DNA of 43,282 nt from a virus (UHGV-0369400), one strand, 5' to 3'; positions 4,128-36,566 are shown, numbered from the stretch's first letter. The notes: generated by a model not told the origin, from the letters alone. Made by a program: numbers and translations.

Positions 4128-4184
4128 AAAGCAAAAATATATTATTTGTGATATATTTATAGAGCAAGTGATAAATATTTATAA

Positions 4185-4241: not shown

Positions 4242-4246
4242 CTTTA

Positions 4247-4272: not shown

Positions 4273-4300
4273 TTGAAAAATGGCTTATTTAAGCCATTTT

Positions 4301-5542
4301 TTATTGCGCGTGTTGCATTTCGTGTTGCATAGCTTCCAAAACAGCTTTTTTCCATCCCTCCGGATCTTCTTTTTTCAGCCGGTTCACAACTTCTTTTATG
4401 GATTCTTTTTCGCTTTTTTCGGTTCCCACGATGCTCTCAAAGTAGCTGTCAATTTTATCATCAACCTTTTGCCGCTCCGACGAAAATGTCTGCATGTAGA
4501 CCTTTTTCATGACAGCATCCGACTTCCAGCCACCGCGCTCCTGGGCGTATTTGTCTGGTATTTGCAGCAAGGCCATAACGGAGGCATTGAGGTGCCGCAG
4601 ATCGTGAAACGTGATAGGGTCCTTTATACCGTGGATTTTTTGCAAGCGTTTCCAGCGGTGGTGCAGTGAAACGTCAGTCATCGGCACCAGTACATCTCCA
4701 GGAACCTTGTCGATCAGACCTTTTATATAAGCCGGTATTTTGTGTTTGCGTTTTCTCGTGTTGTTCTTCGCTGTCTCTTTTCTTACAGCTTTTCCTTTTA
4801 CGGTAATGACAGTCTCTTTTATTGTTATGTAATCACCATTAATTGATTTGGATTTTGTAAGACCGCGGATCTCCGATGCTGTGAACGACAGCCACATTGC
4901 AAGCAGCACCGGCAGCTCCATTTCGGTGCCGCGTACTATATCCATTACTGTTTTTGCATCTGGCAGGTCAACCATTCTTTGCGTTGGCGTAGGTAATTGC
5001 AGATTGTCGGTGCGGATGTTTGTGTATTTGTGCAGCACAGAGGATACAAACCCCCATTCATTTTTCAGCCGCTTTGCTGTAAGGGTCTTACCCGGCTTTC
5101 CGTTGACAGGTCTCTGCGCTTCTTTGGCTATGGCGTTTTGCAGTAGATCTTCCGATATGTCACACAGGCGCATGTTAAAAAGATCCTGGAACCCGTTCCG
5201 CATGATACACTCATAGTCTTCTATGGTGGACGGAGACCTTTTCAATGTTCTGCACAGATCTATATATTTTTCTGCCGCCCCTCTAAGCGTCATATTCGCC
5301 TCTTGGTTGCGCCTTTCCGCTTCACGTGAATCTTTCTCTGCCATGTATTGTGCAGCTGCCAATTCGACCCGTTTGCGCCCTTTGATTGACGGGTCATCAT
5401 CTGTAAAGGACTGATATATTCTTTTTTGTTTTGGTTTTCCGTTTTGCATGACGGGTGTTCCGTCTGGATTTAAGACAGGCTCGTAGTGGTCAAACACTAG
5501 TACACGCCATGATCCTGAGGGTAATTTTTTTGCTTTTGCCAT
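4301..5542 (-). CDS. int: Tyrosine-type phage integrase (414 aa from the ATG at 5542).
   Basis: C-terminal catalytic region: HDLRH...GGWKSDAVMKKVYM gives the R..H..R..Y signature. RBS AAAGGAG precedes the ATG at 5542. The gene lies between attP and the repressor module. Confidence 0.85.
   Translation of the reverse strand: MAKAKKLPSGSWRVLVFDHYEPVLNPDGTPVMQNGKPKQKRIYQSFTDDDPSIKGRKRVELAAAQYMAEKDSREAERRNQEANMTLRGAAEKYIDLCRTLKRSPSTIEDYECIMRNGFQDLFNMRLCDISEDLLQNAIAKEAQRPVNGKPGKTLTAKRLKNEWGFVSSVLHKYTNIRTDNLQLPTPTQRMVDLPDAKTVMDIVRGTEMELPVLLAMWLSFTASEIRGLTKSKSINGDYITIKETVITVKGKAVRKETAKNNTRKRKHKIPAYIKGLIDKVPGDVLVPMTDVSLHHRWKRLQKIHGIKDPITFHDLRHLNASVMALLQIPDKYAQERGGWKSDAVMKKVYMQTFSSERQKVDDKIDSYFESIVGTEKSEKESIKEVVNRLKKEDPEGWKKAVLEAMQHEMQHAQ
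4309..4332. repeat. Direct repeat CGTGTTGCATTTCGTGTTGCATAG, second copy (right arm). It overlaps the stop of int.
   Basis: Identical to 4104-4127. Confidence 0.5.
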
Positions 5543-5621
5543 AGTCGCACACTCCTTTTTGGGTATAAAAAATACAGCCACCAGATTTTTACATATTTTA
5601 TCTTGCGTGACTGCCTGGAAA

Positions 5622-5660
5622 TGTGATATTATACGGGTGTAGGTTTGCGATAATATCACA
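5622..5660. promoter_or_regulatory. 11-bp perfect inverted repeat (TGTGATATTAT ... ATAATATCACA) upstream of int. Candidate operator.
   Basis: Perfect dyad with a 17-bp spacer in the int 5' region. Confidence 0.3.
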
Positions 5661-6594: not shown

Positions 6595-6978
6595 CTATTT
6601 TTTACGTTGCTTTGCAATAAAAGCAACAGAAATCTTGATCTGGTCGAGCAATAAGTTTATGCTCTCCTGATCTACGGGCTGACCGTCAAAATATAACGGT
6701 GTCACTTCTCCGCTTTTTAACATTTTCTCAAGACGGTTAAACTCATCTTTTAGATCTATTGGTTTTTCTTCTGCAACGGCATCTTCCTCCTCCCCTGTTA
6801 TTAGATAGTCAACAGATACGCCCAAAAAATCGGCAATCTTTTTGAGCTTATCCTGTTTCGGTGTATATCTTCCGGCTTTCCAGTTACTAAGAGTCGATGT
6901 AGAAATTCCGGTTCCCTTACACACGCGGTAAGGTGTTACACCTTTTTCAGAGCATAACTTTTCAAATAAACTATACAT
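6595..6978 (-). CDS. XRE-family HTH repressor (cI-like, 127 aa).
   Basis: HTH_XRE signature (TGISTSTLSNWKAGRYTPKQDKLKKIADFLGVSVDYL) followed by a C-terminal extension. It is divergent from the cro-like gene. Confidence 0.8.
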   Translation of the reverse strand: MYSLFEKLCSEKGVTPYRVCKGTGISTSTLSNWKAGRYTPKQDKLKKIADFLGVSVDYLITGEEEDAVAEEKPIDLKDEFNRLEKMLKSGEVTPLYFDGQPVDQESINLLLDQIKISVAFIAKQRKK

Positions 6979-7142: not shown

Positions 7143-7352
7143 ATGGTGAAAATGTACAGCAAATACGCAGAATTAAGAGATAAAGCAGGCATTACTGACT
7201 ATGAGGTCGCAAAAAAGACAGGCGTTTCCACATCGACTCTTAGCAACTGGAAAGCTGGCAGATATACGCCGAAAGCTGACAAAATCCAGAAGATCGCTAC
7301 ATATTTCGGTGTCGGAATTGAGACCCTGCTGGAAGGAGATAAGGGGAGGTGA
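7143..7352 (+). CDS. cro: Cro-like XRE-family HTH regulator (69 aa).
   Basis: HTH_XRE signature (TGVSTSTLSNWKAGRYTPKADKIQKIATYFGV). First gene of the rightward early operon. Confidence 0.75.
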   Translation: MVKMYSKYAELRDKAGITDYEVAKKTGVSTSTLSNWKAGRYTPKADKIQKIATYFGVGIETLLEGDKGR

Positions 7353-8362: not shown

Positions 8363-8673
8363 ACATTGACTGTTTGACCGGATTTGTATAAGGCAAACAG
8401 ACTGATCAAAATAGCGACAAATGACAGCACGACAGGGATGTACCAACGTCTACGGTCTCTGATGTAAGTGTCATATTCAGCCTGGCCAGACGGTTGAATG
8501 CAAACAATTGTAGGCGGATGTATTACATCGATATCCTCTGCGCAATATTTTATAAGGCCGTATTTTCCTAAATAACTGATGTTTTCTTTGTCAGCTTCAG
8601 AAAATTCAGACAATGGTATATCGGTGTTATATAAACGTCTTAATAATTTAATTTGGTTGTTAGAAATATCCAT
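8293..8673 (-). CDS. Hypothetical membrane-anchored protein (126 aa from the ATG at 8673, C-terminal TM helix).
   Basis: AAAGGAG RBS before the ATG. A hydrophobic stretch (WYIPVVLSFVAILISLFALY) follows. Confidence 0.45.
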   Translation of the reverse strand: MDISNNQIKLLRRLYNTDIPLSEFSEADKENISYLGKYGLIKYCAEDIDVIHPPTIVCIQPSGQAEYDTYIRDRRRWYIPVVLSFVAILISLFALYKSGQTVNVYIDKKQMATVAAENPPANAHIK

Positions 8674-9204: not shown

Positions 9205-9903
9205 ATGTGTAGATTTAAGAGCGGAATTATCTTGAAAAACAAAATCGTAATTGCGCCAGAAGATAATGAAAGCCATTCCGATTTGCTGAAAATCCTCGGA
9301 ATTAAGGACGATTACATAGGCGCATCAAAAACCTTTGTTCGGGCTGAACTGGTACCGAAAAAAGATGATGAGTGGTGGATTGATCCGGAAGAAAAACCGG
9401 AGAAATGGGTGTTTGTCGTTGATCAAGATATAATTCCTGATTGGTTTGACAAAGAAACGCATGAGAAAGAGTTCCGCGAATCAGTATGCGACTGGTGGAG
9501 AAAGCATGTACTTGTTGACAAAAAGCTGGAAGAGCTGAAAACTGGTTTTTACCGGCTTAAACGCTGCGAAGTGAAAAAGTTGCTTAATGATGTACGCGTG
9601 ATGTTGGACAGCTCACAGGTCGGCGAGATGCGGGACAGCTCACAGGTCGGCGAGATGTGGGGCAGCTCACAGGTCGGCGAGATGCGGGGCAGCTCACAGG
9701 TCGGCGAGATGTGGGACAGCTCACAGGTCGGCGAGATGTGGGGCAGCTCACAGGTCGGCAAGATGTGGGACAGCTCACAGGTCGGCGAGATGTGGGACAG
9801 CTCAACCGCACGAGACTTTAAAAATTATCCGGTTATAAAAATCATGATTCCAGATGGTGGAAAATTTGAAATGGTTGTGCATAAAAACAAAGACGATGAA
9901 TAA
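9205..9903 (+). CDS. Hypothetical early protein (232 aa) with an internal nonapeptide tandem repeat, SSQVGEM(R/W)(D/G), in about 7 copies.
   Basis: GGAGG RBS. The repeat is encoded by near-identical 27-bp units. Confidence 0.55.
   Translation: MCRFKSGIILKNKIVIAPEDNESHSDLLKILGIKDDYIGASKTFVRAELVPKKDDEWWIDPEEKPEKWVFVVDQDIIPDWFDKETHEKEFRESVCDWWRKHVLVDKKLEELKTGFYRLKRCEVKKLLNDVRVMLDSSQVGEMRDSSQVGEMWGSSQVGEMRGSSQVGEMWDSSQVGEMWGSSQVGKMWDSSQVGEMWDSSTARDFKNYPVIKIMIPDGGKFEMVVHKNKDDE
9606..9806. repeat. 27-bp tandem repeat array (GGACAGCTCACAGGTCGGCGAGATGYG), about 7.4 copies.
   Basis: Units are nearly identical, differing only at 2-3 transition sites per unit. The array is GC-rich relative to its flanks. 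Confidence 0.85.
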
Positions 9904-16273: not shown

Positions 16274-16561
16274 ATGAAAAAGTGGGAAGAGAAAAAAGAA
16301 CCATCCGGCGCAGTGGTTCACACGCTTGTGTTCGGGCATCATGGAGATGATCCCAAAGTCATAGTGGCGTTGTTCAGAGATTCAGATGGAGATTGGTTTA
16401 CAACATCGAATGTACTTGATACATACTGGGACCTGCTGACCGGTAAGGAAATGTGTGAGCATGATGCCAAAATGATGGTAGAGGAAATGGTGTACGATCA
16501 TTTTGCGGATGAAAAGAGGTATTACGAGGAAATTTGCGAAGAGCTTGATATGGAAAATTGA
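16274..16561 (+). CDS. Hypothetical protein (95 aa from ATG 16274).
   Basis: Preceded by the TTAAGATTTGGAGGA junction motif. Confidence 0.45.
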   Translation: MKKWEEKKEPSGAVVHTLVFGHHGDDPKVIVALFRDSDGDWFTTSNVLDTYWDLLTGKEMCEHDAKMMVEEMVYDHFADEKRYYEEICEELDMEN

Positions 16562-16651
16562 TGTTAAGTGCATTGACTGTGGAACTGCCATAAAAACTGA
16601 GTGGGATGTAGCAAAGAAATGTTACAGAACGGTAAAAGAGGGGGATCAGTA

Positions 16652-16876
16652 ATGATGCGATTAACAGAAAAAGATGAGCTGGGTAACTGGTGCCTGAAGG
16701 GTGTCAGGTGGGAGCAATTGCGTACAGGTCAGGTAATCACCAAAGAAGTAGGTGAAACCTCGTATATCTTGAACCGTGGAAAGAACGGAGGACATGCGGA
16801 TCAGGCTGGATTCATCACCATGTGTCTAGCTGTGCTTTGTATGAGAAGAAGGGAACACAATTGCCAAATGATGTAA
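16652..16876 (+). CDS. Hypothetical protein (74 aa).
   Basis: AAAGAGGGGG RBS before ATG 16652. Confidence 0.35.
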   Translation: MMRLTEKDELGNWCLKGVRWEQLRTGQVITKEVGETSYILNRGKNGGHADQAGFITMCLAVLCMRRREHNCQMM

Positions 16877-16906
16877 ACTGAAAGTTAAGATTTGGAGATG
16901 ATGTGA

Positions 16907-17095
16907 ATGGCAATGATTGCATACCAATGCAGCAGGTGCAAGTTACTACAAGATGCCGATGATTATGTATGGTGCGGCGCGGATATAGATCCAAGACCGA
17001 ACCACCGAGAAAAGGGAGATGCAAAGCGGTGTCGCAGTAATTTTGCGCCGCTTGAAAAATCAGAGATATGGCATGAAAAATTTGCTTGGGAGTAA
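16907..17095 (+). CDS. Cys-rich small protein (62 aa).
   Basis: Preceded by TAAACTGAAAGTTAAGATTTGGAG. Confidence 0.4.
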   Translation: MAMIAYQCSRCKLLQDADDYVWCGADIDPRPNHREKGDAKRCRSNFAPLEKSEIWHEKFAWE

Positions 17096-17126
17096 CGTAA
17101 TTTTAAGATTTAGGAGATGAATCACA

Positions 17127-17669
17127 GTGAAAGATATTGTTCGTTTTGACCTTGTAAAGATCAATAGGGGGCGAGAAAAACTTTGCCAATGCACTGCGCC
17201 GTGTTTTGAGGTCGATGAAGAAAATAGAATTGTATCATGCAAAATCTGTGGAGCGATTCTGGATCCGTTTGAAGCTCTTATAAAGCTTGCGGAGCGTCCG
17301 GAAAGGTTGGAGGAAACTCAAAGGAGAATGTTGGAAAAAATAAAAACCTATAGAGAAGAAACGGAAAAAGAGTACAGCAGGATGATAAAAAGCAGAGTAT
17401 TCCGAAAAATGCAGAGTAATTACAATGAAGGTCTTTTTCCTTACTGCCCAGAATGTAAAATGCAGTTTGATCCGGTGAAGATTGACCGATGGGGCAGATG
17501 GAGAACAATGACCGTTGAAGAAAAAATTGAGGCATGTCCACTGGTAAAGAAATTTGAGAATCCAGGGCGGGAAGGAGACGGATGCGCTGGTTTGCGGACG
17601 TGTGGCGGTGAAGGTGAACCAGTGCCAATATGCCAGGAGTGTGAATTGAACTATATTAACTTAAACTGA
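17127..17669 (+). CDS. Multi-CxxC zinc-ribbon protein (180 aa, GTG start).
   Basis: At least four CxxC pairs. Preceded by TTTAAGATTTAGGAG. Confidence 0.45.
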   Translation: MKDIVRFDLVKINRGREKLCQCTAPCFEVDEENRIVSCKICGAILDPFEALIKLAERPERLEETQRRMLEKIKTYREETEKEYSRMIKSRVFRKMQSNYNEGLFPYCPECKMQFDPVKIDRWGRWRTMTVEEKIEACPLVKKFENPGREGDGCAGLRTCGGEGEPVPICQECELNYINLN

Positions 17670-17696
17670 AAGTTAAGATTGAGGTGAAAGTAAATA

Positions 17697-17900
17697 ATGA
17701 AGAGTTTACAGCTATATGTGTGCGAACATTGCGGAACGAAGTACAAAGATAAGAATGAATGTAAAAAATGTGAGGATAGTCATAAGGTTGCGTTGGAAAT
17801 TCATGATATGAGGTTCTATGCTTGCAAAGATAGTGATAACTATCCTAATAAGGTAGAATTGAAAATGGTTGATGGCAAGATGGTTTGGTATCATCGGTAA
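17697..17900 (+). CDS. Zinc-ribbon small protein (67 aa; CEHCG ... CKKCE).
   Basis: Preceded by TTAAACTGAAAGTTAAGATTGAGGTG. Confidence 0.45.
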   Translation: MKSLQLYVCEHCGTKYKDKNECKKCEDSHKVALEIHDMRFYACKDSDNYPNKVELKMVDGKMVWYHR

Positions 17901-17949
17901 ACTGAAATAACCCAAAATTTAATAAGCATACGGAAAGGGAGGTAGTGAT

Positions 17950-18123
17950 ATGGCAAGACCGAAGAAGAAAGCAGAAGATAAAGCCGTCAGACAGAGCGTG
18001 AGCATGGATCCTGTGCAGCTCCGGCAAGTAGTGGCTTACTGCCAGAAGAATGAAAGAACCATAGCGTGGCTGATAAAAAAGGCTGTTGCAGCCTTCCTGG
18101 AGGCAGAGGATAAAGTTGCATAA
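17950..18123 (+). CDS. Ribbon-helix-helix (CopG/Arc-like) DNA-binding protein (57 aa).
   Basis: AAAGGGAGG RBS. Sequence MARPKKKAEDKAVRQSVSMDPVQLRQVVAYCQKNERTIAWLIKKAVAAFL fits the RHH pattern. Not in the ORF track because it is under 60 aa. Confidence 0.5.
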   Translation: MARPKKKAEDKAVRQSVSMDPVQLRQVVAYCQKNERTIAWLIKKAVAAFLEAEDKVA

Positions 18124-18173
18124 AATTAATAACGTTATGCAGTAAAACTGAAATTTAGCGGAGATACAGCCAT

Positions 18174-18494
18174 GTGGAAAAAAACAAACCCGGGCACGGA
18201 ATACGTAATAGCAGCCATGCGCCGGATAGCTGCGGAAAGGGGAAAAGAATGTCATGCTACTACGACAACGGGACAGGTTGGTGTAACGGGCAAAAGAAAG
18301 CTAGAGGTGGCTACTATAGGATCTGCTGGGGATGCTCGAAGCTTGTAACCAAGAAAAAAGAAGAAAAACCAGTAAAAGACAGAGCAAAGAGAAGTTTGTT
18401 AAAAGACTGGGACGAGATTGTAAAACGCCTCAAACGGAGTGGCTATAATTTGTCTACGATATATCTGACAGCAAAAAAAGAAGAAGGAGATTAG
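18174..18494 (+). CDS. Cys-rich hypothetical protein (106 aa; an internal start at 18250 is possible).
   Basis: Preceded by TAAAACTGAAATTTAGCGGAG. Confidence 0.4.
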   Translation: MEKNKPGHGIRNSSHAPDSCGKGKRMSCYYDNGTGWCNGQKKARGGYYRICWGCSKLVTKKKEEKPVKDRAKRSLLKDWDEIVKRLKRSGYNLSTIYLTAKKEEGD

Positions 18495-18809
18495 ATGAGG
18501 ACAAGAGAAGCTAAGTTATCTGACTACAACGTGCCAAAAGAGGACGAATCACAACTTGACCTATATTGCAGGAGTCTGGATCCTGAGATAAAAATCATAC
18601 TATTTGGCTGTGCGATATCAAAAGCGCCAGGGCTTGAAATCCAAACGTATGATAGCTTGGTGACTGGAGACGGATATTATACGCTGATCCGGCGCGGGAG
18701 AGATATTCCGGCAAAGGCAGATGATTTTTATGGGTATAGGCGGAAAGTAAAAGCAGAATTTTACCACAGACTTAAGCTTTTTGGCTTTTGGAAGTATAAA
18801 GGGAGCTAG
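18495..18809 (+). CDS. Hypothetical protein (104 aa).
   Basis: GGAG RBS. Start overlaps the upstream stop. Confidence 0.4.
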   Translation: MRTREAKLSDYNVPKEDESQLDLYCRSLDPEIKIILFGCAISKAPGLEIQTYDSLVTGDGYYTLIRRGRDIPAKADDFYGYRRKVKAEFYHRLKLFGFWKYKGS

Positions 18810-18870
18810 ACAATGACACAAGAAAATAAGTGGTGGACACCCGCCAAGATGATTCCACCACTTACCTAAT

Positions 18871-18911
18871 CTGCTTAGGTCAATTGTATCAGACCTTTGC
18901 AGATTCTGCAA
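18871..18911. promoter_or_regulatory. Imperfect palindrome CTGCTTAGGTC-N10-GACCTTTGCAG, followed by TTGCAG-ATT-CTGCAA. It lies in the native 5' region of the orphan recombinase gene.
   Basis: Dyad symmetry read directly. It could be a recombinase site or an operator. Confidence 0.3.
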
Positions 18912-18929
18912 GAGGGAGAATTACTATGG

Positions 18930-20583
18930 ATAGAGTAAACTTACTGTCAGTTGGAGAGTCGCAGAAGATTCCCTGCTATGAACTTGCCCAGATCGTTTTC
19001 TCATAGTCTACTTCTCCCACAGTGTTTTGTCAAATACCTCCCAGACGCTCCCGGATTGCAAGCTTTTTCCGGATGTCTATACTCGGGATGGTTGCCTGCA
19101 GCTTTTCGATGTATACCCTGTCATTGTCATGACTGTGGAGTAACAGACTCCTCATGTATCCCCTGTTTGGACGCACTGATATCTCCTCGGTTCCCGTTGC
19201 TTCTTCCTGCTTATGGCTCCGCCGGTACTTTACCAGTTCCAGGATCTTTTCTTCTCCGTAATCCTTCACATAGCATCTCAGCTGACACATCGCATCCGCT
19301 CCGGCTTCGCTCCAACCCATCGGACGGGAACTCATCCGGTCGGAATACATATGACTCACATGACCTTCTGCACTGCATCCATAGACATTCTTATCCTGCA
19401 TTCTTCTCACTGCGCTATCCCAGTTGTTCAGCAGGTATTCCTCACAGTCATTCACTGCTTTTTCGTTCGGCGCACATTTCCGGATAGCTTTTATAGTCTT
19501 TACAAACTTTTTCTTCTTGCCCTTATACAGGGCCTTCCACAGCCGTCCTTTGGCTTCCCCTGCCTCATCCAGCATCTGGTTGGCCGCCTTGTTGATATAT
19601 TTCATCATGTGGAACTTATCCAGTACCGGAACTCCCTTTTCAATATATTCCGCCCCTGCTTTGATCCATGCTCCTCCATCTCCACTGATATACACCGCAT
19701 TCAGATACCGGCTCTCGTAGTTCGTGTCGATGTATTCCTGCATCCGTTCAAACAGATGTCTGTTTGCTTCTCCTCCGCTGCAAAGACCTCCCAGGTAGAA
19801 GACATTCTTCAGTTCCTTCCGCCCGTCTTTCTTTTCCTGTCCTTCATACAGATACAACAGCTTCCCGATCATGCTGCCCTTCTTCTCTGTTCCGTTTTTC
19901 TCCTGCTTGTGAATGTGATCCTCGTCTGCCTCAACATAAAGGTATTCCACACACTTTTTCTTCTCCGGCTTCGGGAAGGGCAGTTCTGTCTGGATTCCGT
20001 GTACCTTATCCATGACGGCAGTCTTGCTGATCAACGAATCTTCTCCCAGTACCCTGGCAGCACTGGCATAGCTGGTCTTTACCGCTTCGGCCAGCACCTC
20101 AGCTTCCGCACGGCTGCTCAGTCTTTCATGGGCATCCAGTTCCATCCATTCATCCAGAAGATAATGGCAGGTTCCATCCTTACAGCTTCGGAACAGCGTG
20201 TGGGTAAAGCAAACCGGTCCCACTGTAGTCAGCAGCTGGCGTTCATCATGCCTCTGGATGGTATATTTTTCAGCTCTGGAAATATCCTCACACAGCATAC
20301 GATCCATGTCGCTGTAAAGGGCTGCCATGTGCTCTGCTGCAGCCTTTCTTGCAGCCTCCGCAAGCTGCTTCTCGTACAATTCCATGTCCTTCATCCCGGA
20401 TGAGAGAAAAAGTTCATCTGCTTCTTCCAAATCTTTGTACAGCTTTTCCATTGAATATGCTATAATGTTTTTCATGAGAGTGCCTCCATCGTCTGTATTT
20501 TAGATTCTCGTCAAATCCATTATAACAGAGATGTTGGTACTCTCTTTTTTTCTTTTATTCAACTGACAAAAACTTTACTCTAT
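18930..20583 (-). mobile_element. Insertion sequence (1654 bp) with about 26-bp imperfect terminal inverted repeats (ATAGAGTAAAC... / ...GTTTACTCTAT-like). It is flanked by an 11-bp direct repeat AATTACTATGG (18919-18929 and 20584-20594).
   Basis: Terminal IRs and the target-site duplication were read directly. It carries a single 481-aa transposase ORF. Confidence 0.75.
19030..20475 (-). CDS. DDE transposase (481 aa), tentatively ISLre2 / UPF0236 family.
   Basis: Long, non-repetitive ORF filling the IS. Family assignment is from size and sequence character only. Confidence 0.5.
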   Translation of the reverse strand: MKNIIAYSMEKLYKDLEEADELFLSSGMKDMELYEKQLAEAARKAAAEHMAALYSDMDRMLCEDISRAEKYTIQRHDERQLLTTVGPVCFTHTLFRSCKDGTCHYLLDEWMELDAHERLSSRAEAEVLAEAVKTSYASAARVLGEDSLISKTAVMDKVHGIQTELPFPKPEKKKCVEYLYVEADEDHIHKQEKNGTEKKGSMIGKLLYLYEGQEKKDGRKELKNVFYLGGLCSGGEANRHLFERMQEYIDTNYESRYLNAVYISGDGGAWIKAGAEYIEKGVPVLDKFHMMKYINKAANQMLDEAGEAKGRLWKALYKGKKKKFVKTIKAIRKCAPNEKAVNDCEEYLLNNWDSAVRRMQDKNVYGCSAEGHVSHMYSDRMSSRPMGWSEAGADAMCQLRCYVKDYGEEKILELVKYRRSHKQEEATGTEEISVRPNRGYMRSLLLHSHDNDRVYIEKLQATIPSIDIRKKLAIRERLGGI

Positions 20584-20590
20584 AATTACT

Positions 20591-21628
20591 ATGGGCCAGA
20601 ATATCAAAAGAGAAATCGTTGATAACATCGTTGTTGCAATGTCAATTTACATTTCTGAACCGGGCACACTTGCAATTTTGGACAGTGTAATATCGAGTGA
20701 GCTTACAAAGGTAACCATGCAGGAAATCACATCTCTTCCAGCGGAGTGGAAAACAGATGTAGAAAAAAGAAACCGCTATTTACTGGAACTTTTCAAGATC
20801 AAAAAGCGCGGGCTCAGCCCTGCGACAATCAGCGGATATATCCGATCTGTAAAAAGGTTATCTGACATGATAGGGAAGTCGTTGGACAGTGTAGATACAT
20901 TTGATGTGGAGTGGTATTTGGCACAGTACGAGAAACGCCCAGGAACAAAAAGTGAAAAGGTACAGGACAGAACATATAATAACGAGCGCCGATTCCTTTC
21001 GGCTTTTTACACATGGATGCGAAAATCAAAACTCATTGATGAAAATCCTGTGGAAGCAACGGAAGCGAAAAAGATTGCGCTAAAGCCAATTGATTACTTT
21101 AGCCGGTCGGAGATTATCCAGATGCGTGACGCTTGCCGTACAAAAAGAGAGCGTGCGATCATTGAGGTATTCCGCAGCACCGGAGCGCGGGTTGGAGAAA
21201 TCTCAGAGATCAGAATCGACCAGATCAATACAGAAACGGGAGATATACTCATCAAAGGGGAGAAGGGCGGTAGATACCGCACATTATACCTTGATGATGA
21301 TGCAAGGCACTATTACAATGAATATCTTGAAAGCAGAACGGACAGCAGCCCGTACATGTTTCCACAGACCAGGGCACCATACAATAAAATGAGCGTATGC
21401 GGTTTAAGAGTCATAATTAAAGATATTGGAAAGAGAGCGGATGTGAAAAGCGCGGTATATCCTCATAAAATGAGGAAAACGCTTGGAATGAATTTAAAAA
21501 ACAGAAAGGTTGATATCGGTATCATCCAAGAGATTCTAGGACATGCCAGCCCGGCGGTGACAAGCATGTATTATGCTCAATCAACGCCAAAAACGCTGAG
21601 AGATGTCCGGGAAATGGTACAGATTTAA
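20591..21628 (+). CDS. Orphan tyrosine recombinase (XerC/D-like, 345 aa). The IS insertion has separated it from its native RBS.
   Basis: Catalytic region ...RVGEISEIRIDQI...YRTLYL...HKMRKTLG...ILGHASPAVTSMYYAQ gives the R..H..R..Y signature. Its ATG lies inside the right copy of the IS target-site duplication. The original GAGGGAG RBS is now to the left of the IS, at 18912-18918. Confidence 0.75.
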   Translation: MGQNIKREIVDNIVVAMSIYISEPGTLAILDSVISSELTKVTMQEITSLPAEWKTDVEKRNRYLLELFKIKKRGLSPATISGYIRSVKRLSDMIGKSLDSVDTFDVEWYLAQYEKRPGTKSEKVQDRTYNNERRFLSAFYTWMRKSKLIDENPVEATEAKKIALKPIDYFSRSEIIQMRDACRTKRERAIIEVFRSTGARVGEISEIRIDQINTETGDILIKGEKGGRYRTLYLDDDARHYYNEYLESRTDSSPYMFPQTRAPYNKMSVCGLRVIIKDIGKRADVKSAVYPHKMRKTLGMNLKNRKVDIGIIQEILGHASPAVTSMYYAQSTPKTLRDVREMVQI

Positions 21629-21820
21629 GGAGCAATATGAAATTTGTAACTAAAAGAAAGGAATAACGAATGCCCGGTAAACCGGGTTGGTGCGCAGTGA
21701 ATGGCGGTGGCGTACCGAAAAATTCAACACCGTGGCTATAAGGCTTGCGTTGGAAACGGCGCTGGTCGCATAAGAGCAAACGAATGGTGATCCACGATAC
21801 AGCATTTGTAGCGTGGTGTT

Positions 21821-22561
21821 ATGACGAAGAAAAAGGTGTGCTGGATTAGCGCAGGAGTAAGCAGCTTTATGGCTGGATACTTAGCTGGAGATGTCGATAA
21901 GTGGATTTATATAGACATAAAGGACCAACACCCAGACAGCATACGATTTATACGGGATTGTGAGGCGGCAATCGGACAAGAGATACAGATTTTGCGGTCA
22001 CAAGAATATTGCTGTGTTGAGGACTGCGTGAGGGCTTTTGGCGGCTTCCGTGCCACGAATGGATTTGCACCTTGTACCAACTGGTTGAAAAAGCGAGTGC
22101 GGAAAGAGTGGGAATTGGAACATAAGGACTACGAACTGACTTATGTTTGGGGATTCGATCTGAAGGAACAGGAGCGTGCCGAACGGACCATAGAAGCGAA
22201 TCCGCAGGCGGTTCATAAGTTCCCATTGATTGATGGGGGGTTATCAAAGGAAGAGGTTCACGGTCTATTTGAAAGAACCTTTCCGTTCCGGCGCCCAGTC
22301 ATGTATGACCTTGGTTACCCTAATAATAATTGCCTCGGGTGTGTCAAAGGAGGAATGGGTTATTGGAACCGGATCCGCAAGGACTTTCCAGAGGTTTTTG
22401 AGAGTCGGGCCAGATTGGAGCGGAAGGTGGGCTATGCAATATTGAAAGACAGCAAAGGTCACCCGGTATACCTTGACGAGCTAGAACCTACACGCGGGAA
22501 TATGAATACAGAGATATTCCCAGACTGCGGAATCATGTGTTATTTAAGCATGAAGGGATAG
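21821..22561 (+). CDS. PAPS-reductase-like (adenine nucleotide alpha-hydrolase fold) protein, common upstream of phage terminases.
   Basis: N-terminal PP-loop-like VCWISAGVSS and C-terminal CLGC. Size 246 aa. Sits before the terminase. Confidence 0.35.
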   Translation: MTKKKVCWISAGVSSFMAGYLAGDVDKWIYIDIKDQHPDSIRFIRDCEAAIGQEIQILRSQEYCCVEDCVRAFGGFRATNGFAPCTNWLKKRVRKEWELEHKDYELTYVWGFDLKEQERAERTIEANPQAVHKFPLIDGGLSKEEVHGLFERTFPFRRPVMYDLGYPNNNCLGCVKGGMGYWNRIRKDFPEVFESRARLERKVGYAILKDSKGHPVYLDELEPTRGNMNTEIFPDCGIMCYLSMKG

Positions 22562-22565
22562 AAAG

Positions 22566-22760
22566 ATGGAAGAAAACACAATAACGATAGTGGAATGTCG
22601 GAAACTGCGGGGGCTTATCAGTGATGTCACAAACTGGTGCATTCTAACACGTGATGAGTATAATCAGATTTGTGACATTGTCATGGGAGCAATGCAAAGA
22701 TGCAGCGAATGCGAGAAAGACTATATCATAGCGGAACTGGAAGCACGTAACAAGCCATAG
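22566..22760 (+). CDS. Cys-rich small protein (64 aa) ending in TAG.
   Basis: GGGATAGAAAG RBS-like sequence. CSECEK motif. Confidence 0.4.
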   Translation: MEENTITIVECRKLRGLISDVTNWCILTRDEYNQICDIVMGAMQRCSECEKDYIIAELEARNKP

Positions 22761-22766
22761 AAGATT

Positions 22767-22940
22767 TTGTACCGGAAACAGAGCTATGGAACACCCTGGT
22801 TATGCCCGGCCTGCGAAGCCGATCAGAGCGAGGTACAGTTTGTCGACACTGGAGAGGTAACAACAGGTGGTAAGTATTCTTTCTGTTGGGCGTGCGGGCA
22901 GAAACTGGATTGGGATGTTGAAGAGCGTAGAAATTTGTAA
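22767..22940 (+). CDS. Zinc-ribbon peptide (57 aa, TTG start; CPAC ... CWAC), lying in frame directly after the TAG of the previous gene.
   Basis: The frame is open from the TAG at 22758-22760 through to the TAA at 22938-22940. There are two CxxC pairs. The start codon is uncertain. Confidence 0.3.
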   Translation: MYRKQSYGTPWLCPACEADQSEVQFVDTGEVTTGGKYSFCWACGQKLDWDVEERRNL

Positions 22941-22970
22941 GTAATTCTTGCAAGTTCAAATGATGTAAAT

Positions 22971-23010
22971 AGAGGTGACACCGCAAAACGAGGTGATTCA
23001 CCTCTATTTA
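22971..23010 (+). terminator. Putative rho-independent terminator between the early / accessory genes and the packaging module.
   Basis: AGAGGTGA ... TCACCTCT stem followed by ATTTATGTTT. Confidence 0.35.
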
Positions 23011-23043
23011 TGTTTAGGTAAAATGAAAATAGGGTGATAGTAT

Positions 23044-23301
23044 ATGAACCTTAACCAGATACAAAGAAAGCTGCAAAGAGCATTGCTCACAAAGCAGTTT
23101 GTAACAAAGATAGGCACAAGTCAGTTTTACAGCGCAGATCAGAACCGGATGATAACCATGTACAGTGTGAGCACACCTACATTGCAATATGTACGTGGAG
23201 AATGGAAGACAAGGGATTATGAGATTATCCGGACGGCATCACAGGTGGATATGGTTATGGCACTGAAAGAGATATGGGAAGCGCTAGAAAGTTGGCAGTA
23301 G
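23044..23301 (+). CDS. Hypothetical protein (85 aa) upstream of the terminase.
   Basis: ORF with a GGGTGATAG RBS-like sequence. Confidence 0.4.
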   Translation: MNLNQIQRKLQRALLTKQFVTKIGTSQFYSADQNRMITMYSVSTPTLQYVRGEWKTRDYEIIRTASQVDMVMALKEIWEALESWQ

Positions 23302-23319: not shown

Positions 23320-24945
23320 ATGAGGCTTACGCCAAAGCGGGAAGCGTTCGCAAAAAATTTCATAGAAAATGGCGGGAACGCAACTGATGCGGCGAGAAAA
23401 GCTGGATATAAGAAGCCTGAAGCGGAAGGATACAGACTGCTGAAAAATGCTGATGTATCAGCCTATATAGCCGAAAAGCAAGCCGAAGTGGATAAACTCA
23501 ACGGTACTGACACTATGTCTCTTGCTGACATCCAGAAGCGCCGCGCAATGATCGCACGGGGGGAAGCAAAGGATTCTTTTGGCTTTGCTCCGGCGTTTTC
23601 AGAGCAGCTAAAGGCTATGGCTGATCTGGAAAAAGCTATAGCTGTAAAGGAAGAAAAAGAAGCGCAGCAGAAGGCAGAAGAGGAAGCCAGAACGGCAAAG
23701 GAATACCACATTGATCTTGATGTGGTGGCGGATGTATTTCACCCGATGATTCGCGACATCCGGCGCGGTATGCATACGGAGTATGTGCTTCCAGGTGGGC
23801 GAGGATCTTCGAAATCGTCTTGTATATCATGCATTATCCCGGAGCTGATAAAAAAACATCCTGATATGCATGCGCTTGTGCTGCGAAAAGTCGGAAACAC
23901 CATAAAAGATTCTGTGTATGCGCAGCTACAATGGGCGATCTCAAAGCTTGGCATTGATGCAGAGTTTAAATTCAAACAATCTCCCTTTGAGATCACATAC
24001 AAGCCTACCGGTCAAAAAATCTATTTTCGAGGCGCAGATGACCCAATTAAGATCAAATCGATTAAACCGAAGTTTGGATATATCGGTATCGTATGGTTCG
24101 AGGAATTAGACCAGTTTGCCGGACCGGAAGAAGTTAGAAGTATCCAGCAGTCTGCTATACGTGGCGGCGACAAAGCATATAAGTTTAAATCATTTAACCC
24201 ACCGAGAAGCAAGATCAACTGGGCCAATAAGTATACTGTAGAGGCAGAGTTTAAAAACGCGAGCGCCGTTGTTATGCGAAGCACATACAAAGATGTCCCT
24301 GATGACTGGCTGGGAGAGGAATTTCTTAACGATGCAGAACATCTAAAAGAGGTCAATCCAAGCGCATATGAAAATGAGTATATGGGTGAAGCGAACGGAA
24401 ACGGCGGCAACGTCTTCGAATTTATCGAAGAGCGCACTATCACAGATGAAGAAATCAAAATCATGGATCGCATATATCAAGGTGTTGACTGGGGATGGTA
24501 CCCAGATAAATATGCTTTTGTAAGGATATATTACGATTCGGCGCGTGAAACCATATATTTCATAGACGAGATTTATGAAAACAAGAAAAAGAACAGCTGG
24601 ACAGCCGCCGAAATCAAACGGCGCAAATATGATGACTATGTTATAACATGCGATAGTGCAGAGCCAAAATCTGTTGAGGATTACAGAGATTCAGGGCTAC
24701 CAGCCAGAGCAGCACATAAAGGACCTGGCAGCATTGAGTACTCAATGAAGTGGTTACAAGGGAAAAAATTTGTCATGGATCCGAACAGAACGCCTAACGC
24801 TTGCAACGAATTTAAAGAGTATGAGTACGAGCGGGATAAGGACGGCAACGTCATAAGCGGATATCCAGACAAAAATAACCATCTCATTGATGCGACCCGT
24901 TACGCTACGGAATCGCTGTGGGAGAGACGGGGGAATAGTGCATAA
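23320..24945 (+). CDS. terL: Terminase: N-terminal small-subunit-like HTH domain (~120 aa) fused to a PBSX/XtmB-type large subunit (ATPase + nuclease).
   Basis: N-terminus MRLTPKREAFAKNFIENGGNATDAARKAGYKKPEAEGYRLLKN matches the small-subunit DNA-binding domain. A Walker A (LPGGRGSSKSS) and the large-subunit core follow. It is one uninterrupted 541-aa ORF. Confidence 0.75.
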   Translation: MRLTPKREAFAKNFIENGGNATDAARKAGYKKPEAEGYRLLKNADVSAYIAEKQAEVDKLNGTDTMSLADIQKRRAMIARGEAKDSFGFAPAFSEQLKAMADLEKAIAVKEEKEAQQKAEEEARTAKEYHIDLDVVADVFHPMIRDIRRGMHTEYVLPGGRGSSKSSCISCIIPELIKKHPDMHALVLRKVGNTIKDSVYAQLQWAISKLGIDAEFKFKQSPFEITYKPTGQKIYFRGADDPIKIKSIKPKFGYIGIVWFEELDQFAGPEEVRSIQQSAIRGGDKAYKFKSFNPPRSKINWANKYTVEAEFKNASAVVMRSTYKDVPDDWLGEEFLNDAEHLKEVNPSAYENEYMGEANGNGGNVFEFIEERTITDEEIKIMDRIYQGVDWGWYPDKYAFVRIYYDSARETIYFIDEIYENKKKNSWTAAEIKRRKYDDYVITCDSAEPKSVEDYRDSGLPARAAHKGPGSIEYSMKWLQGKKFVMDPNRTPNACNEFKEYEYERDKDGNVISGYPDKNNHLIDATRYATESLWERRGNSA

Positions 24946-31321: not shown

Positions 31322-31648
31322 ATGTGTGGACAAGGCACTTATAGATAAATGGTAGAATGTAGATGTGAAGAGGATTGGTTACTTTTCATGGTTTTCTCAC
31401 ACACCTCCCGCGCACGTCCTTAATATAAACAGGCCATTCCTGGAGGTTGAAAAGCGGATGAAATTTCCGGCGTGCGCTTGCCAGATCAAAATTCAAGTGC
31501 TTTGACTGGCCTTGAATTTCCTCCTTTCACCTCGTAGCTGATAGGCTGTTAATGCGGCTTACGACCGCAGCGAGGATTCCGCTGCTATAAGCAGAGTTTT
31601 TCTTTTCCCCTTGTAAATGCCTGGTATGTAATCATGCCAGGCATTTTA

Positions 31649-31722
31649 GGACCGCTAGCTCAGCTGGTCAGAGCGCCCGGCTCATAACCGGGTGGTCCGG
31701 GGTTCAAGTCCCTGGCGGTCCA
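31649..31722 (+). tRNA. tRNA-Met (anticodon CAT; elongator type, or Ile2 if lysidinylated).
   Basis: Manual cloverleaf: GGACCGC acceptor, GCTC/GAGC D-stem, CCCGG-CTCATAA-CCGGG anticodon arm, CGGGG-TTCAAGT-CCCTG T-arm, 74 nt. There is no C1:A72 mismatch, so it is not an initiator. Confidence 0.7.
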
Positions 31723-31726
31723 TTTT

Positions 31727-31798
31727 GCTGGTATAGTTCAATGGAAGAACAATTGACTTGTAATCAATATGTTGTCGGTTCAAGTCCGGCTATCAGCT
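31727..31798 (+). tRNA. tRNA-Thr (anticodon TGT).
   Basis: Manual cloverleaf: GCTGGTA acceptor, GTTC/GAAC D-stem, ATTGA-CTTGTAA-TCAAT anticodon arm, GTCGG-TTCAAGT-CCGGC T-arm, 72 nt. Confidence 0.65.
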
Positions 31799-31870
31799 TT
31801 CGGCATTGCCAAGCGGTTAAGGCATGAGACTTTGACTCTCATAGCGCTGGTTCGAATCCGGCTGCCGGAG
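31799..31870 (+). tRNA. tRNA-Gln (anticodon TTG) with a U1:A72 pair.
   Basis: GCCAAGCGGTTAAGGC D-arm as in bacterial tRNA-Gln. TGAGA-CTTTGAC-TCTCA anticodon arm. GCTGG-TTCGAAT-CCGGC T-arm. It abuts tRNA-Thr with no spacer. Confidence 0.5.
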
Positions 31871-35612: not shown

Positions 35613-36074
35613 ATGTATGACAAAACAGTGACGGTTTTTAACTACTACGAATCCTTGACAACCGGCAAGGTGTACTGGTATCCGCATGTCCTTCCTGGCG
35701 TTGATCTGATAACGGATCATGGCGCTATCTTAAAAAAATACGGTCCCGACAGCTCTGACAATGCTGTGCTGCATATATCTTACATTCCGGACGGCGACAA
35801 TGTGATGGTACGGCAAAGCGGTGACAGCTTTATGCTATGGTTAGCACCAAAAGAGTGGAGTAGACAGGTCAATGATGATCTGCCAGAGCGCCTAACATTT
35901 GGACCAGATGACTTTTTTTGGCTTGGAGAATGGACGGGCGGAACGGTAACGGATGATGATTACCTTGGCGGATTTTATCAGTATATGAACACCCAAAGGG
36001 ATAATGTTTATAAGGTCAGCAGTGTAGGTGGTCCGTATACCGTTATCCCTCATTTTGAAATTTTAGGTAAGTAA
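35613..36074 (+). CDS. Head-tail joining / minor structural protein (153 aa).
   Basis: RBS-like GGTGG lies 8 nt before ATG 35613. Position fits. Confidence 0.4.
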   Translation: MYDKTVTVFNYYESLTTGKVYWYPHVLPGVDLITDHGAILKKYGPDSSDNAVLHISYIPDGDNVMVRQSGDSFMLWLAPKEWSRQVNDDLPERLTFGPDDFFWLGEWTGGTVTDDDYLGGFYQYMNTQRDNVYKVSSVGGPYTVIPHFEILGK

Positions 36075-36566
36075 ATGAGCTCAAAGACACGACATTTTAA
36101 GGGTTTTTCCGTTGTTGATGGGGATGTACACGTAAAGATAGGATATGACCGTTTTGAAACGCAATACAAGCGGGCACAATACCAGCTTGACGGTGCTGTA
36201 ATGAATAGCATGGTACCCTTTATGCCAATGGTTACAGGCAGCTTTATAAACACAACCAGAGCCGCTAGTGCTGCGGAACAGGGAACAGGAAAAGTATTTG
36301 CTGCTTATGGACCACAAGGCAGATACCTGTACGAGGGTAAAGTCATGGTTGACGAAAAGACCGGATCACCTTGGGCGAGGCGTGGAGCGCGGAAGGTGCT
36401 TGTGAGTGAATACACTGGCAAGACAAATGCTCGAGAAAACATATCTTACACGCATCAGGCACATCCTAAAGCGCAAGATCACTGGTTTGATGCTGCAAAA
36501 GAAGCGGACGGAAAGACATGGATTAAAGACGTTAAACGCATAGCCGGAGGAGGAAAACATGGATAG
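36075..36566 (+). CDS. Minor capsid / head-tail joining protein (163 aa).
   Basis: Position upstream of the major tail gene. Start overlaps the upstream stop. Confidence 0.4.
   Translation: MSSKTRHFKGFSVVDGDVHVKIGYDRFETQYKRAQYQLDGAVMNSMVPFMPMVTGSFINTTRAASAAEQGTGKVFAAYGPQGRYLYEGKVMVDEKTGSPWARRGARKVLVSEYTGKTNARENISYTHQAHPKAQDHWFDAAKEADGKTWIKDVKRIAGGGKHG

Follow-up and report, generated by a model that had tools for sequence, protein, structure and literature searches.

In the temperate siphophage genome UHGV-0369400, a recent, promoter-guided insertion of an ISLre2-family insertion sequence (IS) beside a predicted antisense RNA gene appears to have left a dispensable recombinase translated poorly or not at all; we put the probability of this whole explanation at roughly 0.7. 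By landing beside the antisense promoter, the IS has cut the recombinase open reading frame (ORF) off from its Shine-Dalgarno (SD) sequence. The predicted RNA gene is conserved in 76 of the 80 related loci examined, and the family spans at least 123 IMG/VR contigs. The window, by which we mean the whole 43,282-nucleotide stretch that was analyzed, comprises the entire genome of a temperate siphophage in circularly permuted form; when it is closed into a circle, one ORF (41838->592) crosses the window ends.

An ISLre2 insertion at the recombinase start codon

The features at the insertion site are as follows.
18929..20584, minus strand: ISLre2-family insertion sequence, 1,656 bp, defined by inverted repeats (IRs), 15 other copies and empty sites
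19030..20475, minus strand: transposase, 481 aa (Mutator-like p-MULT 3/UPF0236), from HMM matches
18929..18953: IR-right, distal to the transposase start, abutting the targeted promoter
20560..20584: IR-left, proximal to the transposase start, abutting the recombinase ORF
18920..18928: left copy of the 9-bp target-site duplication ATTACTATG
20585..20593: right copy of ATTACTATG, the last three bases of which are the recombinase ATG
20591..21628, plus strand: Xer-like tyrosine recombinase, 345 aa, ORF intact and now without an SD
18912..18918, plus strand: native SD GAGGGAG of the recombinase, now parted from the ORF by the IS

The original prediction was that a genuine IS lies here within a target duplication containing the recombinase ATG, and the IRs, direct repeats and empty sites all agree with it. 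The terminal IRs are 24 nt long and 88% complementary (18930-18953 and 20560-20583), and the IS termini read, in transposase orientation, 5'-TATAGAGTAAAG...CTTTACTCTATC-3'. The predicted 481-aa transposase stands, but the length of 1,654 bp does not: a T before ATAGAG and a C after CTCTAT are constant in 15/15 other full-length copies, which include ones only 91 to 94% identical, so the element is 1,656 bp and spans 18929 to 20584. Target duplications of the other copies lie outside this terminal T and C and are 9 to 10 bp long (9 to 10 bp at 11 other IS sites, 9 bp here). The exact 11-nt direct repeat AATTACTATGG (18919-18929 and 20584-20594), which had been read as an 11-bp duplication, is present. 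Judged against the other copies, however, the true duplication is the 9-bp ATTACTATG, and the 11-nt repeat is this duplication plus one IS-terminal base per side that matches the flank by chance. The ATG at 20591 was correctly placed inside the right-hand repeat; the shortened duplication still ends exactly on it.

IS-free relatives carry the uninterrupted RBS-ATG junction that the original prediction led one to expect. A site with a single copy of the repeat (...GCAAGAGGGAGAATTACTATGGGCCAG...) is found in eight independent metagenome contigs (L002, L004 to L007, L009 to L011), where GAGGGAG lies 7 nt before the ATG and the recombinase is identical to the window's (345 aa). Two further assemblies (L003 and L008), 99.99% identical to the window, have the same IS with the same junctions. 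Sequence comparison with these empty sites proves the insertion beyond inference. The IS flanks are at least 99.9% identical to the IS-free contigs over the aligned segments, and on sequence grounds the insertion is very recent. We also considered that the junction might be an assembly chimera and not a real insertion in the phage. The IS is very abundant in gut metagenomes, with an identical transposase protein in 15,035 index blocks of public assemblies, and such repeats can mis-join contigs. Yet the target-site duplication is perfect and of family-typical length, the flanks are colinear on both sides in the same phage, and the junctions recur in the two further assemblies; the chance of a chimera is practically negligible.

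The transposase was assigned by whole-protein HMM matches: it scores 243.9 bits with the NCBIfam model for ISLre2 family transposases, NF033529, which has a cut-off of 200, and it also matches Pfam PF06782 (UPF0236; E=7e-64). ISLre2 and TnGBS transposases direct insertion 15 to 17 bp upstream of the -35 box of sigmaA promoters; IR-right lies beside the promoter, about 16 bp away, and direct repeats (DRs) are 8 to 9 bp (Guerillot et al. 2014, PMC3942029). ISGka4, an ISLre2 element, has a 9-bp DR (PMC8024623). In the window, IR-right ends 17 nt from a minus-strand TTGCAG-N17-TACAAT.
18906..18911, minus strand: -35 box TTGCAG of a conserved antisense promoter, 17 nt from IR-right
18883..18888, minus strand: -10 box TACAAT of the same promoter, with a 17-nt spacer, in the "loop" of a sense hairpin, P2

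The same geometry (TTG 17 to 18 nt from IR-right and TAnnnT at a spacing of 16 to 18 nt) is seen at 11 of 15 distinct IS sites, versus 0/15 on the IR-left side (binomial P of ~3e-13); a recognizable promoter is absent at the other 4/15. Thus, from this comparison and the literature, we conclude that the position of the IS at the recombinase start is not a coincidence but is set by the promoter-target specificity of the element: it sits "exactly at the start codon" because ISLre2/TnGBS elements seek promoters and the target here is a conserved antisense promoter.

The element resembles the TnGBS/ISLre2 group (PMC3942029) in its Mutator-like DDE transposase, which scores above the ISLre2 model cut-off, in its imperfect terminal IRs and 9-bp duplication, and in its oriented mode of insertion, which keeps the promoter intact and places the sigmaA-type -35 box 17 nt downstream from IR-right. 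It departs from that group in having inserted into a phage genome, in that some of its copies give 10-bp duplications rather than 8 to 9 bp, and in that the targeted promoter is antisense and lies within the leader of a gene that runs the other way. As a result, an otherwise "harmless" promoter-upstream insertion separates that gene's SD from its ORF. ISLre2/TnGBS-type insertions can therefore disrupt genes where the targeted promoter is antisense. The role of promoter targeting in dictating the insertion point had been missed in the original prediction.

Only one IS copy is present in the genome, and for this reason we rejected a role as part of an IS-mediated composite element. Neither the GenBank phage collection nor the plasmid collection gave a megablast match to the IS.

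A predicted antisense RNA gene in the recombinase leader

In this uncultured phage, the IS in effect marked a promoter in vivo, and following that mark led to a candidate antisense RNA gene.
18820..18876, minus strand: predicted antisense small RNA, ~56 nt, 5' end inferred from the -10 box
18868..18905, plus strand: sense hairpin P2, AATCTGC-TT-AGGTC ... GACCT-TT-GCAGATT, enclosing the antisense -10 box and spacer

The -35 TTG occurs in every one of 61 distinct leaders from the recombinase family; in these leaders, the -10 box is TATAAT (38), TACAAT (13) or TATACT (10), and the spacer is 17 nt in 55. The predicted RNA has a ~12-nt 5' tail, a long hairpin and a U-rich tail, an architecture that is the same in 50 distinct relatives. 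Its hairpin consists of an outer stem (18827-18837/18854-18864), a G.U-rich inner stem and an apical loop, UGGC, and the fold has a free energy of -24.8 kcal/mol (z=-4.2). In most leaders, the hairpin starts 13 to 25 nt past the -10 box (range, 10 to 30), and at least 5 T's in the 9 nt after the hairpin make up a U tract in 55/61. Hairpin P1 has double changes at 8/8 pairs, and its score was reached by 0/500 shuffles; the alignments behind the pair counts of both P1 and P2 had been trimmed or fitted with the help of the proposed structure. MAFFT with RNAalifold misaligned the 3' arms of the raw 118-nt leaders and so recovered only 5 pairs; the final pair analysis used diagonal pair tabulation, anchored sub-alignments and a covariance model. 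This model matches the 76 loci always 60 to 120 nt upstream of the recombinase.

We infer that the promoter, hairpin and U tract constitute a gene for a ~56-nt antisense RNA, which precedes nearly all recombinase genes of the family. This predicted gene is previously undescribed and absent from Rfam: Rfam 15 gave chance matches only (a miRNA model, E=0.05) on both strands of 18600-18960, and nothing was matched at the leader in 12 diverse loci. A 17-codon mini-ORF at 18814-18867 was taken as spurious, since relatives do not conserve it as a reading frame.

The palindrome noted earlier at 18871-18902 is present and extends to 18868-18905; its arms, AATCTGCTTAGG and CCTTTGCAGATT, are those of P2. 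The earlier reading had missed that they form the arm pair of a conserved RNA hairpin around an antisense -10 box. A plain two-hairpin sense 5' untranslated region (UTR) with "conserved loops" was also entertained for P1 and P2 and then revised, because the P2 loop is the -10 box and the P1 loop is the inner helix of the minus-strand structure.

Could the leader nevertheless be only a sense structured 5' UTR, cis-regulatory or protein binding, with no antisense RNA and an IS at the ATG by chance? P2 shows compensatory changes among relatives, and its transition mismatches on the plus strand are 26 G.U versus 1 A.C, with both mismatch types penalized equally. The plus-strand leader folds with z=-4.7, and in relatives the SD always follows immediately after the two hairpins. 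Against this, the P2 "loop" is exactly a TAnnnT -10 box with a TTG 17 nt away in all 61 leaders. The G.U pairs of P1 number 9 on the minus strand versus 3 on the plus strand, and its inner helix of U.G/C.G pairs and the U tract can form on the minus strand only. In the window, the covariance model has a single match, on the minus strand (56.9 bits versus 11 bits on the plus strand). Finally, this IS family targets promoters, as the element does at 11/15 of its sites. We regard the sense-only reading as quite unlikely.

A different view of the same inverted repeats is that they are the recombinase's own DNA substrate, a lox/dif-like core or an attC-like folded single-stranded site, from which the IS has parted the enzyme gene. 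Recombination sites often adjoin recombinase genes, the two arms vary in step from one relative to the next, and the protein is weakly similar to integron integrases and XerA. Tyrosine-recombinase core sites, however, have a fixed 6- to 8-bp overlap, with which the P2 arm spacing of 5 to 24 nt (mostly 8 to 20 nt) across relatives conflicts. The transition mismatches are strand biased, as in RNA, the conserved center is explained as a -10 box, and no second copy of the element was found in the genome or the 80 loci. That these repeats are the enzyme's DNA substrate is thus very unlikely, and we retain the antisense RNA gene as the preferred reading.

Cis-encoded antisense RNAs are known to restrain recombinases, transposases and phage regulators, as with IS10 RNA-OUT/RNA-IN, R1 CopA/CopT, lambda paQ and oop, and P22 sar. 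Like these, the predicted RNA would be short, untranslated and highly structured, with a sigma70-type promoter of its own on the strand opposite its target gene's 5' leader and a long stem-loop that has a small YUNR-like loop (UUGG/CUUG) and doubles as an intrinsic terminator. The predicted RNA is complementary to the recombinase leader and, by analogy, may limit recombinase expression; direct occlusion of the SD is not obvious, since the RNA is predicted to end ~36 nt before it, and the sense leader has an alternative fold in which the P1 3' arm pairs with the SD region. It differs from the known examples in that neither sequence nor Rfam links it to them, its apical sequence is conserved family-wide, and what it would target is the tyrosine recombinase of a phage of Firmicutes. 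A literature search returned nothing relevant on an antisense-controlled phage tyrosine recombinase, and no convincing trans target of the hairpin loop or the RNA 5' tail turned up in the window.

The small RNA might also be a functional partner of the recombinase, for example, bound by the enzyme and helping to choose or gate its DNA target in a ribonucleoprotein tyrosine-recombinase module. We consider this exceedingly improbable. What keeps it in view is that the apical sequence is conserved beyond what a purely cis-antisense role requires, as cis-complementarity needs no conservation, that the RNA gene is retained where the recombinase gene is deleted, and that our search found no DNA site for the enzyme.

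Probable effect of the insertion on recombinase expression

As originally predicted, the native RBS lies to the left of the IS, as confirmed by its junction with the ORF in the empty sites, and the intact recombinase ORF follows IS-end sequence that has no SD. The structured leader and antisense promoter are also on the left, and no GGAGG-like motif occurs within 30 nt upstream of the ATG at 20591. The stranded SD and left ATG open a chimeric ORF that runs into the IS.
18926..19006, plus strand: chimeric 26-codon ORF MDRVNLLSVGESQKIPCYELAQIVFS

The stranded SD would now drive this junk ORF, and from sequence, the full-length recombinase is probably translated poorly or not at all in the IS-bearing lineage. 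The phage may tolerate such silencing because the gene is dispensable and repeatedly lost in relatives. Deletions, truncations or frameshifts affect the gene in ~8 of 57 relatives (L113, L116, L126, L128, L132, L154, L162, L167), and from these alleles we conclude that the recombinase gene is conserved but dispensable.

The IS end carries weak outward promoter-like hexamers (CTGACA-18-TACTAT, 9/12), and an in-frame ATG lies at recombinase codon 43 with a weak AAGG upstream; some expression of the full or an N-truncated recombinase is thus possible. The IS might even deregulate the recombinase, if read-through or IS-end transcripts lacking the antisense-controlled leader gave protein from ATG 20591 or from the internal start. 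No plus-strand terminator-like site is present inside the IS, and the ORF is intact and identical to that of the IS-free phages. But ATG 20591 has no SD-like sequence nearby, a transcript from the outward hexamers would begin downstream of this ATG, and a protein started at M43 would miss conserved parts, since the first 70 residues include family-invariant positions. Moreover, the insertion is so recent that the intact ORF is uninformative about selection. Deregulation is therefore unlikely.

The recombinase family and its phage context

The recombinase matches PF00589 at 103.9 bits (cut-off, 27.1) and has a SAM-like N-domain; R200, K225, H292, R295, H318 and Y327/328 are invariant in 63 relatives. 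It resembles XerA (4a8e, 5hxy) and XerD (1a0p) in its SAM-like core-binding and catalytic domains with a complete R-K-H-R-H-Y set, and its best HMM and PDB matches are to XerA/XerC/XerD, with XerA (4a8e) as the closest solved structure. Unlike these proteins, it falls below every curated Xer equivalog cut-off (XerA, 164.1 versus 220; XerD, 113.2 versus 329.6; XerC, 106.3 versus 335) and carries a conserved N-terminal extension of ~70 aa. A non-exhaustive genome search found no convincing dif-like site (28 bp, 11-6-11) and no lox-like site; the only nearby palindrome is variably spaced and RNA-like.

The integration module lies elsewhere in the genome.
4301-5659, minus strand: integrase, 452 aa, in the lysogeny module beside an attP-like region
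4248-4264: tRNA T-arm-like core of the attP-like region, next to the 452-aa integrase

Duplicated arm-type repeats CGTGTTGCATTTCGTGTTGCATAG lie beside this integrase in the attP-like region, and the phage encodes an ERF recombinase as well. The view that the Xer-like protein is not the integration enzyme thus held. The suggestion that it inverts a tail fiber cassette, as a tyrosine-type DNA invertase of the FimB/FimE or shufflon Rci kind would, did not: throughout the window, all tail ORFs point in the same direction, no inverted repeats flank them and no inverted tail fiber paralogues were found, and the protein scores 36.5 and 28.5 with invertase HMMs that have cut-offs of ~221. No inverted repeats suited to an inverton were found in the whole window or within 4 kb on either side of the recombinase gene. 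In the surrounding region, PADLOC gave no defense-system match for the recombinase or its neighbors, except a weak SspD-like match of a PP-loop protein; Rfam gave no match for the GC-rich spacer at 21600-21900; and megablast of 16500-23300 against the GenBank phage collection gave no match.

The recombinase had been called an orphan, but its family has members in at least 123 phage contigs of IMG/VR as well as in cultured Clostridium phage phiCs5676-1, with a conserved leader and a position near terminase. In every fetched locus that includes a terminase homologue (~25/80 loci), the gene lies 1 to 4 kb upstream of it. In phage P1, cre is encoded close to the packaging genes. Like cre, and as an analogy in function, the recombinase is a second recombinase, not the integrase, close to packaging genes. 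Our working guess is a role in genome maintenance, e.g., resolution or cyclization near the packaging genes, rather than integration or tail fiber inversion. Together, these observations define a widespread "second recombinase" module made up of a predicted RNA gene, a structured leader and a Xer-like enzyme; the catalytic residues are intact in most members, the enzyme is often lost, and phage annotation labels it simply "integrase."

In phiCs5676-1 (OR574845; [Clostridium] scindens DSM 5676), the "integrase" CS5676_0062 is 51% identical to the recombinase over 99% of its length. As in the window, this gene is placed after the replication genes, a separate integrase sits in the lysogeny module, giving two integrase-family genes, and the same antisense promoter (there TTGCCC-17-TATACT) and hairpin precede it, with the predicted short minus-strand RNA at about 36,021-36,080; unlike the window, phiCs5676-1 lacks the IS. 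The phiCs5676-1 paper makes no mention of the CS5676_0062 recombinase gene. Since this phage is a plaque-forming relative on C. scindens, our proposals are directly testable. Its leader is annotated as a 43-aa hypothetical protein, CS5676_0061, which overlaps the predicted RNA.

An ISLre2-family insertion at the recombinase start codon

The inverted repeats, 481-codon ORF, 11-nt repeat, GAGGGAG motif, and recombinase ATG described in the original prediction are all present, at the following positions.

Features of the insertion site and recombinase leader
18868-18905, plus strand: hairpin P2, an extension of the palindrome described in the original prediction
18912-18918: GAGGGAG, the native Shine-Dalgarno (SD) sequence
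18919-18929 and 20584-20594: exact 11-nt repeat AATTACTATGG
18930-18953 and 20560-20583: imperfect 24-nt inverted repeats at the insertion sequence (IS) ends
19030-20475, minus strand: transposase ORF of 481 codons, NF033529 and Pfam UPF0236
20591 (ATG): recombinase ORF of 345 codons, SAM-like N-terminal domain and Phage_integrase catalytic domain

The IS ORF encodes an ISLre2-family transposase (243.9 bits against NCBIfam NF033529, curated cut-off 200; Pfam UPF0236 was also matched), and the identical transposase is very frequent in gut metagenomes (15,035 blocks of the collection index). To place the IS boundaries, we compared 10 other genomic copies and 5 full-length reference-genome copies, which span Waltera, Maccoyibacter, Faecalibacterium, and Lachnospiraceae MAGs and include copies only 91-94% identical. 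In transposase orientation, all 15 have a constant T 5' of ATAGAG and a constant C 3' of CTCTAT, and their target-site duplications (TSDs), 9 or 10 bp long, lie outside these terminal bases. Thus, the IS is 1656 bp long (18929-20584) and its TSD here is the 9-bp ATTACTATG, the last bases of which are exactly the recombinase ATG; the repeat extends to 11 nt because both terminal IS bases match the flanks by chance. A real insertion with a duplication holding the ATG had been correctly recognized, and only the lengths, 1654 bp and 11 bp, required correction. Duplications of 9 bp (PMC8024623) and of 8-9 bp (PMC3942029) have been reported for ISLre2 elements. Two compared genomes from different families but one strain collection, Faecalibacterium tardum CLA-AA-H175 (L103) and Maccoyibacter intestinihominis CLA-AA-H185 (L107), have 100% identical IS, flanks, and TSD (AACGGTAGCA), so either the two share a mobile element or there was cross-contamination.

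A search of public assemblies for the exact recombinase protein returned ten loci. Eight (L002, L004-L007, L009-L011) lack the IS and read ...GCAAGAGGGAGAATTACTATGGGCCAG..., with one repeat copy and 7 nt between SD and ATG; these contigs supply the uninterrupted SD-ATG junction that the original prediction had proposed seeking in related phages. In the other two (L003, L008), which match the window at 99.99% identity, the IS is present with identical junctions. Aligned flanking segments of the IS-free contigs share ≥99.9% identity with the window, although their upstream early-gene content forms a mosaic from one contig to another. Together, the empty and filled sites and the near-identical flanks indicate one genuine and very recent insertion event.

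Promoter targeting and a predicted antisense RNA gene

Transposases of TnGBS and ISLre2 target sigmaA promoters, inserting 15-17 bp upstream of the -35 box, and predicted promoters peak 16 bp from IR-right, the transposase-distal IS end (Guerillot et al., PMC3942029). Leftward from IR-right (18929), the minus strand reads 17 nt, TTGCAG (18911-18906), a 17-nt spacer, and TACAAT (18888-18883). Among 15 distinct sites of the same IS, 11 have TTG 17-18 nt from IR-right together with TAnnnT at 16-18-nt spacing, while none of the 15 IR-left flanks shows this geometry (binomial P ∼3e-13, for TTG alone). The window insertion is a textbook-clean case of promoter targeting, in which the IS would have recognized an antisense promoter in the recombinase leader with its IR-right end facing that promoter. 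Because 14 nt separate the -35 box and the recombinase ATG, which are on opposite strands, the insertion falls exactly on the start codon as a geometric by-product of promoter targeting.

The targeted promoter appears to be part of a conserved, previously undescribed antisense RNA gene. IMG/VR contains at least 123 recombinase relatives (48-97% identity); among deposited phages, Clostridium phage phiCs5676-1 comes closest by recombinase (51% identity). Across 61 distinct upstream regions of the family, a minus-strand TTGnnn is present in all, 55 have a 17-nt spacer and 6 an 18-nt one, and the -10 box is TATAAT (38), TACAAT (13), or TATACT (10). A hairpin, P1, starts 13-25 nt past the -10 box in most leaders (range, 10-30) and is followed by a T-rich run in 55/61. 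All 8 pairs of the P1 outer stem have changed on both sides, with 94% of cells paired; none of 500 shuffles reached the observed score, and slid controls were far lower. On the minus strand, an apparent conserved loop of 16-20 nt instead folds into an inner helix built from U.G and C.G pairs (CAUCU/GGGUG, AACU/GGUU, GUCU/GGAC, and others), capped by UGGC- or UUGG-type loops; plus-strand pairing at these positions would give A.C mismatches. The leader also holds the palindrome of the original prediction, which extends to P2 and covaries, with double changes at 7/9 pairs in the short-loop class and 5/8 in the long-loop class. When G.U and A.C were penalized equally, the two hairpins gave opposite strand answers: the minus strand was favored for P1 (9 versus 3) and the plus strand for P2 (26 versus 1). 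The conserved P2 "loop" is the antisense -10 box on the other strand.

A covariance model for the hairpin and its tail on the minus strand has a single match in the window (18820-18865, minus strand; 56.9 bits, E = 1.6e-12), where the plus strand scores 11 bits. In 76/80 related loci it also matches exactly once, in every case on the strand opposite the recombinase gene and 60-120 nt 5' of the recombinase start. Searches of both window strands (E up to 10) and of 12 diverse loci against Rfam 15 found no family for the hairpin. From these comparisons, we read the leader as including a gene for a ∼56-nt antisense RNA (∼18876 to 18820, minus strand) and a sense hairpin, P2, with complementarity between its 5' arm and the small RNA's 5' tail. 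The predicted RNA has the architecture of classical cis-antisense regulators: it is short, it has a long terminator stem-loop with a YUNR-like apex, and it faces the recombinase 5' leader. Its predicted end falls ∼36 nt short of the SD, and alternative folds of the sense leader involve the SD. By analogy, we infer that the predicted RNA may restrain recombinase expression. A 17-codon mini-ORF (18814-18867) overlaps the antisense hairpin, and in phiCs5676-1 the annotation places a 43-aa "hypothetical protein," CS5676_0061, across this element (OR574845, 36014-36145); neither is conserved as an ORF, and both are probably annotation artifacts over the RNA gene.

Displacement of an accessory phage gene from its SD by an IS is real but ordinary taken alone. 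The value lies in the explanation, a promoter-targeted ISLre2 insertion pointing at what appears to be a widely conserved antisense RNA gene, predicted to front a "second recombinase" that is widespread among gut Firmicutes phages. Every claim about the small RNA comes from comparative sequence analysis; phiCs5676-1 on [Clostridium] scindens provides a system for direct experimental testing.

Probable silencing, loss, and proposed role of the recombinase

By landing upstream of the antisense promoter, the IS has separated the recombinase SD from its ORF. The junctions bear out the earlier description of an SD left of the IS and an intact ORF lacking one. The stranded SD and left ATG open a 26-codon ORF into the IS (18926-19006). 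The sequence in front of the right-hand ATG, AACTGACAAAAACTTTACTCTATAATTACT, lacks any SD-like run of purines. Later in-frame ATGs, at codons 17 and 43, are served by a weak SD at best, and starting there would drop family-invariant N-terminal residues. The sole outward promoter-like hexamers, CTGACA-18-TACTAT, would start a transcript 3' of the ATG; no plus-strand terminator-like site was found inside the IS. Given the missing SD, poor later starts, and misplaced hexamers, the recombinase is most likely translationally silenced. The insertion spares both the predicted RNA gene and its promoter, as this IS family usually does.

Among ∼57 family loci retrieved via a hairpin 16-mer, eight (L113, L116, L126, L128, L132, L154, L162, L167) have a deleted, truncated, or frameshifted recombinase. 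All eight retain the hairpin. The recombinase is thus dispensable, and the IS allele would be a further loss-of-function allele of an often-lost gene. L128 is a clean deletion joining P2 to the next gene, in L162 ATGGGCCAG is fused to a C5-methyltransferase C terminus, and L113 and L132 have internal deletions beginning ≤13 nt from the ATG. Left deletion endpoints cluster by the start codon, for which ascertainment is part of the cause.

R200, K225, H292, R295, H318, and Y327/328 are kept in all 63 aligned relatives. The best matches are XerA, XerD, and XerC, every score being under the curated cut-off, and the nearest solved structure is XerA (4a8e). As originally proposed, this is not the integration enzyme: a separate 452-aa integrase lies in the lysogeny module beside an attP-like region (4104-4341), where two copies of CGTGTTGCATTTCGTGTTGCATAG (4104-4127 and 4309-4332) flank a tRNA T-arm-like core, ACGGGTTCGATTCCCGT (4248-4264), which suggests integration into a tRNA gene. 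phiCs5676-1 also carries both an integrase and a second recombinase. The suggested role as a tail fiber invertase finds no support: tail genes all run in one direction, with no inverted repeats and no inverted paralogues. Nor does "orphan" describe the gene, which is located 1-4 kb upstream of terminase in ∼25/80 loci, those in which the terminase query matched. Our guess, by analogy with Cre of phage P1, is a role in resolution or cyclization near the packaging genes. A homologue of the 104-aa ORF at 18495-18809, which has no family match, often adjoins the recombinase, upstream in close relatives and immediately downstream in four loci (L038-L041), and may be its functional partner.

Other features of the phage genome

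The window is circularly permuted, and a single tail ORF extends from 41838 over its two ends to 592. A RAGATH-21 RNA (79 bits, over the gathering score) followed by three tRNA genes occupies 31409-31870, amid the structural gene block. Seven tandem 27-nt units (9569-9831) within ORF 9205-9903 could be a repeat protein or replication-region iterons, and a 95-nt inverted repeat, 75% complementary with arms 305 nt apart (6818-6912 and 7218-7312), lies in the lysogeny-switch region. The 541-aa terminase ORF (23320-24945) combines a small-subunit Terminase_2 domain (residues 3-118) with large-subunit Terminase_3 and 3C domains. A GC-rich, visibly self-complementary noncoding stretch of ∼240 nt (21629-21868), with no Rfam match at E up to 1, separates the recombinase from a PP-loop ATPase (PAPS-reductase/SspD-like) gene. 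In the 284-nt gap directly before the terminase-proximal genes, a perfect 13-bp hairpin, TAAATAGAGGTGA...TCACCTCTATTTA (∼22966-23010; L002 contig, 8376-8420), may act as a terminator or as a regulatory site where the early and late regions meet.
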